Shown one piece after another: positions 7,046 through 62,689 of a stretch of 64,000 bases of DNA. Each line of letters begins with the position of its first letter. The first letter of the stretch is position 1. Origin of the DNA: a virus. The position numbers and the translations under genes are program-made. The stretch spans positions 1-64,000 of IMG/VR virus record IMGVR_UViG_3300021519_000007. One strand, given 5' to 3'. Below the pieces are notes generated by a model. It was not told the origin of the DNA. It worked only from the letters and a program-made list of their open reading frames with translations, and ran no database searches.

Positions 7046-10000
7046 CTAGCGCTTCAGTGACTCGTAATACACTTCAGAAATGCCGAGAACAGTTTCGCTC
7101 TCGTTAACATTTATACCCGACCTGGGAGTGTAAAAGTCGGATGAGTCTATCTCACCTTCGCCAACCGCAAACGCATTAAGGAATGCAAGTATGGAAGTCG
7201 ATGCTACAATGTTCTTATTGCCTATAGCGGCTAGTTTCAAATAGTGTAGATCTGTTGCTCGTACTACAGTCTGGCCAGTGACAATATTATTAGCCACAGT
7301 GACGGGCATGTTGTTCTGGAATAGGCGGCCCATAGAAACGTATTTGGGGAGAACAGTATACTCTGAGATCCAGGCATCCTCGGTTAGAGCGCGTGCCTGT
7401 AACTGTATGTAGTTTCCTATTTGATCATCTGGTAGATGCAAGCCACCGTATTGCTTATTGACATTATTTCTGAACGGTGCCCATAGACCATTGTCACTGA
7501 CGCGCATTTCCCACTCAATTGTTTGCGTGTTGATCTTTATATTATCAACCCACCATTTGCCTATGAATCCAGATGCATCCGCGTCTCCGTCGCCGTCAGA
7601 AACAAGCACAAGATAATAGTCACCACTCCTGGCTCTTGTTCCACGCATATCGAACGAAACGTGTGACCAAGCCCCAGGAATAAAATCAAAACTAATCGGA
7701 GCACCTTCGGGCACTACGCCAGAGAATACATCTATGCCATTAGTGCCAGCAGGCTGCTCGGCTGGCCTGAGCAGGAACTTCGGTCTTAGTGTTTTTGATT
7801 TGAGTTGACGTGGAGCCCAAATATCGAACTCAATAAATAGATGGCTCCAGTCATCAACTGTAAACTGGTTTGATACTACACCCGGCAGAAGCGTTCTGCC
7901 CTTGGATTCAAAAGCATAACTACCCATACCGCTAATGGTCCTTTGACTGTCTGAGTAGACACGATCGGAACCGTTTAGCGTGAAAAAGTTTTCAAACAGA
8001 TTTTTATTTCCAGAATCAACCGTGAATAATTGTGCTCCCTCGATGGCGGTCTCGCTCTTGAATTGCTTTGTTTGCAATACGGCGTAGGCTGCCGAGTCTA
8101 GACTGAAGGAATTGATATACATATCCTTGTCTGCAAACTCGGCATACCAGCCGATACGTCCGGTGACTGGACTCCACTCAGGACTTGAGGCCACGGCACT
8201 GCTATACACCGTGTGGTCGGGTTGTTCGGCAGATGTGAGTTCATCTATCTCAACAGACATATTATTGCCCTGAACGATCAGCGACAATTCGTAGTTCGTC
8301 TCCCCGGACAGCACTGGGAGATAAGATATGCCTTTGTTCGCAGAAGCATACTGTTCAATAAAAACACCCCCAGGATGTATATCCCAAAATAGGGCAGGGG
8401 TCTTGTTATCATAAGATTTATTTCTTAATGTCTTATACCTTTTTAGCGTAGACGATGAACGCACGGCGAATGAATACTCTGCTGTTAGCCAGGAGGACTG
8501 AATCAAATCATTCAACTCTTGCTCCCTAGCAAAAAGCATAAATCTGTTGACGTTACTCTCTGATATAAATTTTCCTGTCTGAAAAATAAACGATTCTTTG
8601 CTATCAAGCGGGTTGAGATCAGACCCAATTGTGACTATCTTGTCTCCCCTTATCATCGGTGGGATTTTCATTATGCTCTGATCGTAGCCAAGATCTGGAA
8701 CATAGACATTCTCTTCAAGCGTGTTTACTTCTACTGACGTGTGCTTTACACCTCCCGATACCGCATTATTAATACAGCGAATACTCATGATCTCTATCGA
8801 TGTATTTTTGGGCGACCTAGCAAAACCCGCGAAAAATATCCTTACGCCGGTTATATTCCAAAAATCAAATTCTGCACTGGCTGTCATAAACTCCGACAGG
8901 TGGGCAATAAACTCGGGTTTTATTGTTCCCGGAACAAGGTCTTTATCACTTGCCGAAACCTGCGGGTAGAGATGATCTTTAAAAGACACTGGATTGCTTG
9001 TGGCCGGTCCCGCAAAAGAGCCATCGGGTGCCGACGTGAACTGGATAAAACAGCCCGGCCTTGCTGGATCCTCCCAACCGTTCAGGATATTAACACCAGG
9101 CAATGCGACTCCAGCGCCGGTATCCCATGGGAAATCTGAGAACGTCATGTTGATCGTTAGATCTTCCCCGTCAGTTGTGAGATCTGGTCTTTGTCCCGGG
9201 TATTTCCCAATCTTTGTGCAGTTGACAACACCATTGACAGATTGCATATACACCGACCAGTTCGTCCCGACCTTTGTAAGCGCCCGAGCAAAACTGAAAT
9301 TGAGCCCCCTCGTGTTTTCTTTTGTGCTAATTTTTCCTACAGAGTAATCAGATTCCTGGAATTGAGAACGGACAGGACTACTAGTGCCTGCCGGTGGTGT
9401 GCTGCCAGTAAAACCCTTCTTAAGCGTCCAGTTTTCATTCTTATATCTGTATGCTATTTTTAATTCGTCAACAGTCGACGATGTATTGAGTGGGTCCCCG
9501 GTCTCAATATAATTCTGATCAAAAGAGACTGCATCAAACGTACTGATGCCGGTTGTCGGATCGTAACCCTCAATGCTTGTAGTGCTGGGAGACAAGTCCG
9601 AAAGTGGCATTCTGAGTAGGCTCAAGTCGCCGAACATCTCACTGAACTCAATAAGAAGCGTGGGGGTTGTGGCATCGCCAAGACTATTCACAACGTTTCT
9701 GATCGGATCCTCCGAAGTTCTAGAGAACTTTGGAAGCATGTTCAGTGCATCATTTAGGGTAGACTTAATCTGAGACGAGGTCTGATCATGCGCAAAAGGT
9801 CCCAGGCTAATCGGAACATACGGATCGTTATCGGTTGGATAGTAGAGAATAGAGAACGTTCCAGATGTAACGGGATCGTTCAGAGTTATTATTTGCGAGA
9901 AGGCTTTTTGATTTACATGGTAAGTGTTTAGTTCTTTTATTGTTCTACGGCGTACAGGATATCTATAATTGATAAAGTCTCTTATGTTTACGTGCTTCTG

Positions 10001-57304: not shown

Positions 57305-57378
57305 TCCGCGAGGCAGGATTCGAACCTGCAATCTGCCGGGTAGAAACCGGCTGCCTTGATCCATTTGGCCACTCGCGG
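57305..57378 (-). tRNA. tRNA-Arg (UCU), no encoded CCA
   Basis: CCGCGAG/CTCGCGG acceptor, GCCGG-TT-TCT-AC-CCGGC anticodon arm, GCAGG-TTCGAAT-CCTGC T arm. Confidence 0.93.
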
Positions 57379-59240: not shown

Positions 59241-59360
59241 AGGAGCCCCGGTTCCCACCCGGCAATTATCGGCTTGCCTACCGCCTCACACGGTAGCACA
59301 GGCCGCGTAGAGACGCGACCATCTGACGGTCTACGTCCCGGATGCTGACCGGGGACTCCT
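59241..59360 (-). ncRNA. Candidate structured non-coding RNA (about 120 nt)
   Basis: Closing helix AGGAG(T)CCCCGGT/ACCGGGGCTCCT, inner helix CATCCGG/CCGGGTG, hairpins GGTCGCGT-CTCT-ACGCGGCC and CTACCGT-GTGAG-GCGGTAG. TGGTATAAT lies at 59361-59369. Confidence 0.55.
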
Positions 59361-59371
59361 ATTATACCAAT

Positions 59372-59830
59372 TTATTTCTTTAAATCAAGATATGGTGCTT
59401 GTGATAGTGCAACGCCTGTACAACCCCAGGCATACACGCCGTAACGATTGACGATCCTCTGTGCTTGGATCATCTGTTGACGTGGTGTCGCCCTATCTGC
59501 GGTCGGAGCCATATCCGTTCCAGCAATACCTTTCTCATGCCACAGGGGTTCCCAAATACCCAAGCCCCCGGGGTAACTTCCGTTCCTCGTTTGGTGCCAG
59601 TCAATACCCCATTTGTATCTCTTTCCACTCGCACCGGCTGGAGCGGGCTGCTCACATCTACCGATAGCGATAAAGAATCTCCAATTAGGGACAATCTTTC
59701 CTATTCTCATGTGCTGTTTACCGTGCCTAATGCCTCCTCGATATTCCGGCAATGGACGAGCCAATGCTGTAGGCACCACTAGCATAACAATAACAAAAGC
59801 CAATATTAGTTTCTTAATCATTTTAAACAC
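59372..59830 (-). CDS. Secreted resuscitation-promoting-factor (Rpf)-like transglycosylase
   Basis: Signal peptide; IGRCE (catalytic Glu), NGSYPGGLGI...W, APTADRATPRQQMIQAQRI...YGVYAWGC match the Rpf core. Confidence 0.8.
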   Translation of the reverse strand: MFKMIKKLILAFVIVMLVVPTALARPLPEYRGGIRHGKQHMRIGKIVPNWRFFIAIGRCEQPAPAGASGKRYKWGIDWHQTRNGSYPGGLGIWEPLWHEKGIAGTDMAPTADRATPRQQMIQAQRIVNRYGVYAWGCTGVALSQAPYLDLKK

Positions 59831-60251
59831 CCACTATTCTCGCGCAGGTCCAGTCGCTCCAGCCACGCGTTTTGTAGAAGTAATACGCGATCCTTGTGTT
59901 CCAGACAGGATCAAATATGTTCGCTCCAAGCCTCCACCCCTCTGAGTTGTAGGTTCGGTTGATCTGAAACAATCCGTAGTCCGAAGTCCTCGAGACGGCA
60001 TACGGATTCCACACGGACTCGCACGAAACGATCCGCATAGCGTTACCAGCCTGCGATCCAAAACCAATGCGGACGACGCACTCCAGTTCAGCCTTCGTCC
60101 AGTGAGCCGGACGATGGTTGCACGCGTACATCCTTTGCGTTTGGATCTTCTTCTTGTGCGGGTTGGGAATCCCCATCCCCGCTGTTGCTGTCCCAGTCGC
60201 AACCACTGTCGAACATATAAACACTGCGATAAATGTTAGTAGTACCTTCAC
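59823..60251 (-). CDS. Secreted lysozyme-like / SLT transglycosylase (start revised to GTG 60251)
   Basis: AGGAGG RBS; signal peptide; IVSCESVWNPYA...DYGLFQIN...FDPVWNTRIA...GWSDWTC. Confidence 0.85.
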   Translation of the reverse strand: MKVLLTFIAVFICSTVVATGTATAGMGIPNPHKKKIQTQRMYACNHRPAHWTKAELECVVRIGFGSQAGNAMRIVSCESVWNPYAVSRTSDYGLFQINRTYNSEGWRLGANIFDPVWNTRIAYYFYKTRGWSDWTCARIVGV

Positions 60252-60427
60252 GGGCAACCTCCTGCTTGTACCGTCCCATTCTGGGTCCCCCCACGAAACG
60301 GACACAAGCGGGGGTTAGTCACACGGTTTTGCGTGACGGGCGTCTTCTGCGGTTAGGATTTTGAGGCTGGGTTCCAGCCCCTTGTCGGTCTCGCTACGCC
60401 CCCTGCTCGGTGGTGTCTCTTATTATC
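60252..60427 (-). promoter_or_regulatory. Structured 5' leader, candidate c-di-AMP (ydaO)-like riboswitch variant
   Basis: GATAAT -10 box; helix CGAGC(A)GGGGG/CCCCCGCTTG; two inner hairpins; ydaO-like words CCCGTCA, CTAACCCCCG and GGGGGACCCA; competing helix next to the RBS. Confidence 0.35.
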
Positions 60428-60463
60428 GTGCCGGAGTATGGCTTAAATAGGCCATTCCGGACA

Positions 60464-62296
60464 TTAGAACTCTCCCATGGAGAGTCTGTTGAGGAGATCA
60501 GACAGGATGTGTTCTTCATCCTTTTGTGTCCCATCCACCACGGCAGAAATTATAGCACGCTTGTGGTCGATCAATTCGGCCAGATACTCATCAATTGTCC
60601 CCGCAGCCATGAGGTAGTAGCAGGAAACAGGATTCTCCTGCCCTGAGCGATGGCAACGATCCTCGGCTTGGTGGTGTTTAGTCGGAGTCCACGTCAACTC
60701 AAGGAAGGCGACGTTGGAGCAGACATGCTGCCACCCGTCGATCCCCTCGGCAGCGGCGTCGATGTTGGCGACAACAACACGAACACTGTCGTCCTCGGAG
60801 AAGCGGTCGATTGCTGCCTGCCTTGCATCCGATCCCATGCCGCCCACAACACGGACGGCCTTGGGGCCAAGGTGTTTGCACACCATGTCCACTGTGTTGC
60901 GGTGGCTGCAGAACAGGACGAGTTTCTCGTCAGATGTGAGGAAGTCGTCGATCCATTCAAGCGCAGCATTGATCTTTCCACGGGCACATACTTGACGCAG
61001 TGCGTTGAGTTTTGTGATTGCAATTGCCGCCTTTGCACGGGCGACCTTTGCATCGACCTCATGCTGCCAAGCGTTTTGAGCCTCGACCGGCGTAAGAGTA
61101 GACAGATGCTCATTGAATTTTTGATCCGAATTAACCTGCGAACGAATCCAAACAGCGATGTCATCTCGAACCCGATTATACTCGGGGCGGTTGGTGATCT
61201 CCAGCGGAATGGAGATGCGCTCCTTCGGAGGCAGTTCTGTAAGGACATCCTCTTTGCGTCTACGGATCAAGATGCCACTCCTGCGCAGGCGAGTATTCAA
61301 CTCGAACAAATTACTTGCTCCGCGGGTGTCCCAACCGTAACCGTTGTAGGAAGGGTTACAATAGCGCTCAACAAATGTCCAGTTTCTACCGCCTGTGATT
61401 TCATTGAGGCGGCCAATGATTGACAACTGAGACATAAGGTCGATTGGACTGTTTGTCAGGGGTGTGCCCGACATCGCAATCCTGATTTCTATCTGGCTGG
61501 CAAGGATCGCCGATGCTTTGGCCCGCTTGGACTTACCGTTCTTAATGAAATGCGCCTCATCAAAAACAACGGCCTTACATCTCAGGCGCTGGATCTCAGC
61601 GACCCAACCAGCAAGGATGTCATAGTTGATTATGACAATTTTTGTATTGCCGGGAATCCTTTTGCTCGTGCGGCCCGAACAGACAAAGATCAAGTCGTTA
61701 GAAATGGAGGGAAAGAATCTATTTATCTGACGAACCCAACCCATTTTGATTGAAGCGGGGCAGATGACTACAACGGGGTATGCCTGCTCCACTGCCACAG
61801 CAGCGAGAGCGCAGAGCGTTTTGCCCGTCCCCATCTCGTCACCTATGTAGACCCTACGGTTACGAACGATCCAGTCAACCGCAGCCTTCTGATAGTTGCG
61901 GAGTGATCCAGCCAAACCGGGGACAATAATGTCCGGCCCCTCTTGGGCGACAGACAGTTCCTGGTTCTCTTCTTGCTGCTTCTGACGTTCTTCTTCAGCC
62001 TGCAGGATCTGCTCAATGAGCCGGTCAGCAGAAGCGTTACGCTTGAAACCATACTCTTCGATGATCTCTAGCATTGGCTCAATTGCCTCACGCTCGGCAG
62101 GAATAACCCAAGCGCTAATCATCTTGTCGCCACGGGGGTAGAAGTTCGGGTGCATTTTCACACCCCGAATATTTCTTTTGAGATCACGCAGGCGAGCAGC
62201 AATCTTGCTTGTCTCATCTGTCGATAGATCATCTACGGCAATACCAAAGCCGTTCCCGCTTCTAAGCGCACCGAAATGCTTGAATGGTCTAGACAA
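60464..62296 (-). CDS. SNF2/SMARCAL1-like helicase (start revised to TTG 62296)
   Basis: GDEMGTGKT, DEAH, SGTP, LIRRRKEDVLTELPPK, QAEDRCHRSGQ; GAAAGGAG RBS before the TTG. Confidence 0.92.
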   Translation of the reverse strand: MSRPFKHFGALRSGNGFGIAVDDLSTDETSKIAARLRDLKRNIRGVKMHPNFYPRGDKMISAWVIPAEREAIEPMLEIIEEYGFKRNASADRLIEQILQAEEERQKQQEENQELSVAQEGPDIIVPGLAGSLRNYQKAAVDWIVRNRRVYIGDEMGTGKTLCALAAVAVEQAYPVVVICPASIKMGWVRQINRFFPSISNDLIFVCSGRTSKRIPGNTKIVIINYDILAGWVAEIQRLRCKAVVFDEAHFIKNGKSKRAKASAILASQIEIRIAMSGTPLTNSPIDLMSQLSIIGRLNEITGGRNWTFVERYCNPSYNGYGWDTRGASNLFELNTRLRRSGILIRRRKEDVLTELPPKERISIPLEITNRPEYNRVRDDIAVWIRSQVNSDQKFNEHLSTLTPVEAQNAWQHEVDAKVARAKAAIAITKLNALRQVCARGKINAALEWIDDFLTSDEKLVLFCSHRNTVDMVCKHLGPKAVRVVGGMGSDARQAAIDRFSEDDSVRVVVANIDAAAEGIDGWQHVCSNVAFLELTWTPTKHHQAEDRCHRSGQENPVSCYYLMAAGTIDEYLAELIDHKRAIISAVVDGTQKDEEHILSDLLNRLSMGEF

Positions 62297-62329
62297 GGAA
62301 TCTCCTTTCTCTTGCCTGTGGTTGTGTAG

Positions 62330-62403
62330 TAGCACCTGAGGGAATTGAACCCTCACCCCCGGTGACTAGTTCTGACCGCCGTGGGGGCGAACCTGCGGTG
62401 CTA
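62330..62403 (-). ncRNA. tRNA-like element (acceptor + T arm, no D stem or canonical anticodon loop)
   Basis: TAGCACC/GGTGCTA acceptor, (T)GAGGG-TTCAATT-CCCTC(A) T arm, central GC-rich hairpin. Confidence 0.55.
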
Positions 62404-62616: not shown

Positions 62617-62689
62617 TACTCCCACGGGGATTCGAACCCCGGTATCTGCCATGAAAGGGCAGGGTCCTAGGCCACTAGACGATGGGAGC
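62617..62689 (-). tRNA. tRNA-Glu (UUC), no encoded CCA
   Basis: GCTCCCA/TGGGAGT acceptor, CTGCC-CT-TTC-AT-GGCAG anticodon arm, CGGGG-TTCGAAT-CCCCG T arm. Confidence 0.95.

Follow-up and report, generated by a model that had tools for sequence, protein, structure and literature searches.

The DNA studied here comes from an IMG/VR virus record, a contig of about 76 kb of which 64 kb, referred to below as the window, was analysed; the phage setting proposed in an earlier, sequence-only reading of the locus is thus borne out by the source. On the minus strand, the gene for an SNF2-family helicase of 630 aa (60464-62356; Pfam SNF2-rel_dom, 8e-30, and Helicase_C, 2e-12) ends in a TAA stop codon at 60466-60464 and is followed by a gene-free stretch of 212 nt. 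Next come a gene for a lysozyme-like SLT-domain protein of 142 aa (59823-60251; Pfam SLT, 1e-07), which starts with the GUG at 60251-60249, and one for an Rpf-like transglycosylase-domain protein of 152 aa (59372-59830; Pfam PF06737, 29 bits against a cut-off of 27), which overlaps the SLT gene by 8 nt. Enzymes of the Rpf and SLT types cleave the actinobacterial cell wall, and dormant cells are resuscitated by Rpf factors. The N-termini of both proteins, judged by eye from the translations, are hydrophobic and signal-peptide-like, and the two enzymes look like secreted proteins with putative signal peptides. Two tRNA genes flank the helicase-SLT-Rpf block on the same strand, at 57305-57378 and 62617-62689 (Rfam tRNA, 66.7 and 57.9 bits).

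What host does the phage infect? A blastn search with the window DNA found no match among cultured phages, and because the helicase relatives among cultured phages are all less than 36% identical, the host assignment rests on SLT homologues in Acidimicrobiia MAGs, which point to a host that is probably a member of the Actinomycetota. Near-identical DNA is present in lake and freshwater metagenomes of several studies (six public runs, all of DNA). The contigs from these runs are 99% or more identical to the window, and the only useful variation among them is three changes in the linker at 60343-60346. The three clustered differences occur in one lake-metagenome contig (run X2), just 5' of the 3' strand of the P2 base described below, and one of them abolishes the terminal U-A pair of that base.

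Further relatives came from protein-guided scans with the SLT protein, which gave 235 loci. In two metagenomic phage contigs, L082 and L084, the gene order of the window is retained, with the same helicase gene upstream, the full leader, the SLT gene and a second gene; the second gene has a PF06737 match in L082 and no Pfam match in L084. Identity between copies is 61-83% in the leader and 66-78% in the flanking genes, which is about the same. A further contig, L002 (the same contig as L083), has only the 3' half of the leader, behind a different upstream gene that ends inside the region. There is no such leader at L003, L004, L005 or L163, nor at the cellular homologues in Acidimicrobiia MAGs.

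The leader, of about 170 bases, is non-coding. The reading of it as coding sequence, with translation beginning at 60305, is rejected: the frame that opens at the GUG there shows no protein-level conservation among the copies, and the N-termini of 21 SLT homologues, all with the same V/M-K-V-L start, align at the GUG at 60251. The Shine-Dalgarno sequence (SD) AGGAGG (60263-60258) stands 6 nt from the start codon in the window but 8 nt from it in L084; since this spacing differs by 2 nt, the conserved bases upstream of the start lie in different frames and are not conserved at the protein level.

A few bases upstream of the fold is a -10-like box, GATAAT (60422-60427, minus strand), which reads TATAAT in L082 and CATAAG in L084 in the same alignment columns. 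That this box is the likely promoter of the leader we infer from the box itself, because a consensus sigma-70 scan of 59700-60700 found no full promoter, and no promoter-like site inside the fold. Between the helicase stop codon and the box is a near-palindrome, CCGGAAUGGC...GCCAUACUCCGG (60431-60460, minus strand), which forms a hairpin without a U tail in the minimum free energy (MFE) fold and whose core, AUGGCyUAkUUAAGCCAU, is common to the window and L082. Either a protein-binding operator that covers the -35 region or a terminator without a tail is conceivable. The same element, CCGGAAUGGCC..GGCCAUACUCCGG in the window, is a perfect ATGGCTTA-GT-TAAGCCAT in L082.

The words and hairpins named in the earlier reading are all found on the minus strand at the places given for them. 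At the 5' end of the fold is CGAGC-A-GGGGG (60409-60399), here G-run A, which supplies the 5' strand of a long-range stem, P1 (60408-60401 with 60312-60306), kept in 3/3 copies with one-sided changes only. The last Gs of the run double as the start of the P2 base. The sequence-only reading had drawn this stem as CGAGC(A)GGGGG paired with CCCCCGCUUG. Both strands are present as described, but the stem does not amount to ten pairs: three of the five 5' Gs also serve a covariation-supported helix of GGGCGU with ACGCCC, so that the long-range stem is effectively CGAGC-A-GG(G) with (C)CC-GCUUG. P2 is a long irregular hairpin (60339-60400) in which six pairs are changed on both sides across the window, L082 and L084; it consists of a base (60400-60396 with 60343-60339), a GCG/CGC segment that is not retained in L084 (60394-60392 with 60351-60349), a two-pair GA/UC segment (60386-60385 with 60358-60357) and a tip, the hairpin GGGGCUGG-AAC-CCAGCCUC (60381-60374 with 60370-60363). 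P3, the hairpin GUCACGC-AAAACC-GUGUGAC with its A-rich loop (60337-60318), is present in all four copies, with an A-U to G-C change in L084.

After P3 come the junction bases CUAA and the C-rich strand CCCCCGCUUG (60318-60305 together, with CCCCCGCUUG at 60314-60305), which is the 3' strand of P1 or, alternatively, the 5' strand of a hairpin P4 or an anti-Shine-Dalgarno strand. The 3' strand of P4, with the C-rich strand as its partner, is G-run B, GUGGGGGG (60294-60287); the longer word GUGGGGGGACCCA (60294-60282), singled out in the earlier reading, is confirmed. A mini-hairpin, P5, CCC-AGAAU-GGG (60285-60275), belongs to the consensus fold; its stem never varies in the four copies and so carries no covariation evidence. 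The ribosome-binding region (60274-60236), made up of ACGG, UACAAGC, the SD, the GUG start and the first codons, is the best-conserved part of the intergenic region (73-83% identity), and its GGUAC can pair with GUACU across the start codon.

In L002, G-run A, most of the C-strand (its distal part) and G-run B are missing; P3, CUAACC, P5 and the ribosome-binding block are almost unchanged. The L002 phage probably makes a short leader without the switch strands, and their joint absence looks like the loss of a dispensable, detachable regulatory module. The stretch L002 1153-1500 is a mosaic junction, in which a 76-aa upstream ORF ends within the region of the P2 5' strand, after a TATTATAAAT box.

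Is the leader a genuinely conserved structure? A 231-nt stretch folds to -91.4 kcal/mol, as compared with -73.3 +/- 4.8 kcal/mol for dinucleotide shuffles (z = -3.74), and 0/200 shuffles did as well. Pair counts were taken on the three full copies, those of the window, L082 and L084. In the three-helix fold of P1, P2 and P3, 94% of the 83 pair cells are standard pairs, and 7/28 pairs show changes on both sides, namely one in P3 and two each in the base, the two-pair segment and the tip of P2. The observed pairing together with its double changes was attained by 0/500 shuffles, a control that comprises three sequences and ignores their kinship, and when partners were slid by 1-3 columns the controls were 32-56% paired with 0-1 double changes. 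Given the alignment only, RNAalifold recovered the same helices. Because there are only three full copies, and because the shuffle control ignores relatedness, the covariation is suggestive of a conserved fold rather than conclusive. The consensus folds of the three copies contain one junction, P1/P2/P3, plus downstream hairpins. Invariant bases make up 21/48 of the unpaired junction and loop positions and 29/56 of the paired ones; unpaired bases being no more conserved than paired ones, the alignment singles out no ligand pocket.

The C-rich strand (CUAACCCCC; CUAA-CCCCC, 60318-60310) has three possible partners: G-run A, G-run B and the SD. The earlier proposal of mutually exclusive folds at the ribosome-binding site stands, in that the competing C-strand pairings, the SD included, are present in all three full copies. 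The pairing of GCUUGUG..CCGU with ACGG.UACAAGC, ending at the SD, that it described is likewise part of the MFE fold. Which partner is predicted to win differs with the copy and the method: MFE folding chooses the SD in the window and G-run A in L082 and L084, and the consensus fold of whole leaders has G-run B as the partner. When RNAalifold was run on whole leaders, P1 was replaced by P4, followed by P5 and then by the GGUAC/GUACU hairpin spanning the SD and start codon. Three features speak for P4: the length of its loop varies, at about 3 nt in L084, about 13 nt in the window and about 32 nt in L082; the outer pair changes from C-G in two copies to U-A in L084; and in L002, from which the whole P4 hairpin is absent, G-run A, the distal C-strand and G-run B are lost jointly. 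The lowest-energy state of the window, at -76.1 kcal/mol, is the one with the SD covered. For L082 the fold with P1 (-68.2 kcal/mol) lies only 1.9 kcal/mol below the one with the SD covered (-66.3), and for L084 P1 is favoured and leaves the SD free. The predicted ground state thus differs among copies, the SD being masked in the window and unmasked in L084.

One might suppose that the element is structured without switching, for instance a 5' element that protects against RNases, a processing site or a transcription signal, and that the competing pairings are accidents of its G and C runs. P1, P4 and P5 are indeed nearly invariant G/C runs, which leaves the switch itself with hardly any support from covariation; the copies also disagree in their predicted ground states, and the junction bases are not specially conserved. 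Yet all three partners of the C-strand are retained in 3/3 full copies despite divergence of about 30%, and in L002 the C-strand and its partners are lost together. The anti-SD complementarity, read from the sequences, is also kept in the window and L084 despite different flanking bases. Weighing these points, we consider a structured, non-switching element quite unlikely.

Another explanation would need pairing at the ribosome site and no ligand. The lysozyme gene e of phage T4 has two promoters, which give transcripts with and without a masking strand. The leader described here might similarly be a timing device or a protein-controlled leader, in which a masked ribosome site is freed by a protein of the phage or the host, by another 5' end or by processing. 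The two systems have points in common: both are phage muralytic genes, and in both the ribosome site can be locked in a hairpin by an upstream complementary strand. Moreover, the SD is masked in the MFE fold of the window, phage muralytic enzymes need timing, L002 shows that a shorter leader without the masking strand is viable, and the near-palindrome over the -35 region could be an operator. What differs is that the sole promoter-like box lies upstream of the whole fold and that the fold is far more elaborate. The scan of 59700-60700 found no T4-type second promoter inside the masking hairpin and, the only -10-like box being upstream of the fold and none inside it, there is no evident sign of the two-promoter arrangement of T4. 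Masking would also not require a conserved junction of three helices with irregular internal loops, and in L084 masking of the SD is not the predicted ground state. A ligand-free timing leader is therefore unlikely in our view, though not far-fetched.

The more specific claim of the sequence-only reading was that the leader is a variant or degenerate c-di-AMP (ydaO, RF00379) riboswitch. This claim fails at the level of the family model, the HMM, the reciprocal search and the architecture. With RF00379, whose gathering threshold is 38 bits, nothing matched at gathering, nor with the limit relaxed to E<=10, in the window, the whole virus record, L082 or L084; as a control, the same search scores true Actinomycetota sites at 85-109 bits. 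An HMM built from ten true ydaO sequences and run with nhmmer gave no local match in the leaders; across the 64 kb of the window it scored best at 9489-9509, on an unrelated GGGGACCCA word that fits equally well by chance. In the reciprocal direction, a covariance model of the leader built here, R1, found no match in the ten true ydaO sites. The ydaO aptamer has two three-way junctions and six helices (P1-P3 and P5-P7) in a pseudo-twofold symmetric arrangement, with a pseudoknot between the P7 loop and the 3' tail or SD (PMC11963983). The leader, by contrast, has one junction. None of its hairpin loops is complementary to AGGAGG, the sole anti-SD stretch being the 3' strand of P1, and the second-junction blocks GGGGUGAAU, UAGGG and CCCGAAC are absent from all three copies when the alignment is read against the consensus. 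The leader is not a member of the c-di-AMP riboswitch family, nor of any Rfam family.

What, then, of the resemblance that suggested ydaO? The word order given in the sequence-only reading agrees with the Rfam consensus, with agCGgGGGAaCCa upstream and CCCGuCAGCUAACCuCGc downstream, and the best match to GGGGGACCCA in the leader is, as was said there, on the downstream side, 3' of the CUAACC strand. In the Rfam consensus gCGgGGGAaCC, a mini-hairpin and GGGG lie near the 5' end and CCCGuCAGCUAACCuCGc near the 3' end, and the G and C strands pair. Only two short words of the leader match, in swapped order. CCCGUCA, P3 and CUAACCCCCGC together resemble the ydaO 3' word CCCGuCAGCUAACCuCGc, and CGUGGGGGGACCC-AGAAU-GGG resembles the 5' word gCGgGGGAaCC-loop-GGGG but is located downstream. 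As for the 5' block, the G block that matches well (60294-60275) comes 3' of the C block in the leader; the pairing, for which the 3' partner in ydaO is CCuCGc, does exist, and the upstream G-run A is without the GAaCC-hairpin part of the ydaO block. The continuous junction word of ydaO, CCCGuCAGCUAACCuCG, appears in the leader as CCCGUCA...CUAACCCCCG, split by P3; a word of this length is too short to be significant, and nhmmer finds no match.

One could still imagine a rearranged, circularly permuted or one-site ydaO derivative that continues to sense c-di-AMP, by which the phage times its wall hydrolases with a messenger of the host. The two matching words are, like those of ydaO, complementary, the C-rich CUAACC strand preceded by CCCGUCA pairing with the GGGGGAcCC strand, and a mini-hairpin follows the G-strand as in ydaO. 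The ACGG after the mini-hairpin can pair with the CCGU just before the junction, which compares with the GGG/CCC helix of ydaO, and the ribosome site is immediately 3' of the leader structure. The leader likewise fronts wall-hydrolase and Rpf-type genes of what are probably Actinomycetota, a gene context typical of the actinobacterial ydaO regulon (PMC6009663, PMC9960051). The likely host phylum does contain true ydaO: 17/121 Actinomycetota genomes sampled have it, one of the Acidimicrobiia among them, but 0/5 of the genomes that hold the nearest cellular SLT homologues do. Set against a derivative are also the empty family, HMM and reciprocal searches, the single junction, the swapped word order that places the G-strand 3' of its partner, the splitting of the CCCGUCA..CUAA junction word by a 7-bp hairpin, and the lack of the second three-way junction with its blocks and of the loop-to-SD pseudoknot. 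Assessed by eye, a circular permutation in which the pairing of the C-strand with G-run B corresponds to ydaO P3, P5 to P4, and ACGG:CCGU to P5 is formally possible as a minority reading, but the whole P1/P2 arm would then be confined to a loop of 3-13 nt. A ydaO derivative that still senses c-di-AMP seems to us quite unlikely.

The other proposal of the sequence-only reading, a new cis-regulatory motif in a phage, fares well: the leader is non-coding, it is conserved in syntenic phage contigs, and its fold is kept by compensatory changes. We accordingly favour, with about even confidence, a new, rare, phage-restricted, riboswitch-like translational leader of the SLT and Rpf-like operon that falls in no catalogued RNA family. 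On this account the stretch would be the 5' untranslated leader of a two-gene phage operon for an SLT lysozyme-like enzyme and an Rpf-like transglycosylase. Its sensor-like domain would be formed when P1 closes a junction bearing the long irregular P2 and the short, A-looped P3. Pairing of the 5' G-run with the C-strand would close P1 and leave the SD free; pairing of the C-strand with the second G-run, 20 nt downstream, would give hairpin P4; and pairing of the C-strand with the SD AGGAGG would block the ribosome site. A stabilised closed junction would then exert translational control by holding the C-strand away from the ribosome-binding site. We infer that the pairings switch, that the closed-junction state is the 'on' state, and that a ligand is involved. 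The trigger would most likely be a small metabolite or second messenger of the host and, less likely, a protein.

At what step would control be exerted? A terminator search of the leader found no downstream hairpin with a U tail, and therefore any control would act on translation, the mechanism we consider most likely. In Actinobacteria, RNA switches are classically found on genes for wall hydrolases and Rpf proteins (PMC6009663, PMC9960051). The rpfB switch of Mycobacterium tuberculosis, which occurs in a few mycobacteria, works as a transcriptional attenuator and carries an intrinsic terminator (PMC6009663). It and the present element have in common that each is a structured 5' leader of an Rpf-type muralytic gene, restricted to a lineage and proposed from structure and a few related sequences; the phage leader differs in having no U-tailed, terminator-like hairpin, and appears to act at the ribosome site.

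A bolder form of the preferred account is that the leader represents a new riboswitch class of a small freshwater-actinophage lineage, perhaps half a c-di-AMP aptamer rearranged, that reads a host metabolite or second messenger to time the secretion of a lysozyme-like enzyme and an Rpf 'wake-up' factor. This we put forward tentatively, as a possibility that we would on the whole expect to prove wrong. A phage with SLT and Rpf genes behind a sensor-like RNA would link wall remodelling or host resuscitation to a host-derived signal, and such coupling would be a level of phage-host interaction that has been little explored. A ligand, if there is one, would make the leader a new riboswitch class, and should the ydaO-like words be a mark of descent, the leader would show how a pseudo-dimeric aptamer can be cut down and rewired. 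If, on the other hand, the leader is merely a masking hairpin, it would be an ordinary timing device for a lysis-type gene.

How widespread is the element? Across the roughly 235 loci, R1 matches only the window, L082 and L084, plus L002/L083 weakly. Since this narrow model found nothing in the other 232 loci or in 302 further genomes (151 of Acidimicrobiia and 151 of Actinomycetota), the leader element is probably very rare and restricted to phages. Three degenerate-pattern scans of IMG/VR (for P3 plus CUAA, for the ribosome-binding block, and for the C-strand through G-run B) yielded either nothing or the L002 contig alone. When IMG/VR was scanned for the P2 tip hairpin as an exact word, the match at L001 proved to be a chance one, within a coding region.

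Several observations on neighbouring sequences may be of use. A second structured, gene-free stretch lies on the minus strand directly after the Rpf-like gene (59242-59369), with no Rfam match at E<=10 and no recognisable conservation in L082 or L084. It begins with an extended -10-like TGGTATAAT (59369-59361), continues with a fold closed by GGAGUCCCCGG/CCGGGGCUCC and then CUAACUAACC, and folds to -76.9 kcal/mol (z = -4.8). In Acidimicrobiia (L166-L172), no known riboswitch is found upstream of the cellular SLT homologues, which have a conserved synteny, with one or two divergently oriented tRNA genes about 700 nt upstream of them.

An N-terminal extension at L004 and L005 (..LPFSYETKRS..) was considered as a translated leader and set aside, as it resembles real protein and holds no motif of the leader. 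In this sister SLT clade (L004 1390-1500, L005 1387-1500; P0014-P0021) a conserved extension of 35-45 aa, ..G[VL]LPF[ST]YETKRS.., precedes the hydrophobic segment, which suggests a signal-anchor form and not a cleaved signal peptide. A helicase scan brought up a related phage, L251, which was rejected as a carrier of the leader: after its helicase gene come a short leader lacking the motif and a secreted protein of another kind. At L251 2431-2800 the protein after the helicase has a hydrophobic, signal-peptide-like N-terminus (MKRYLLAIMLVL..) and a 50-nt leader, and because a different signal-peptide-like protein occupies this position there, the place behind the helicase gene looks like a hot spot for exported proteins.
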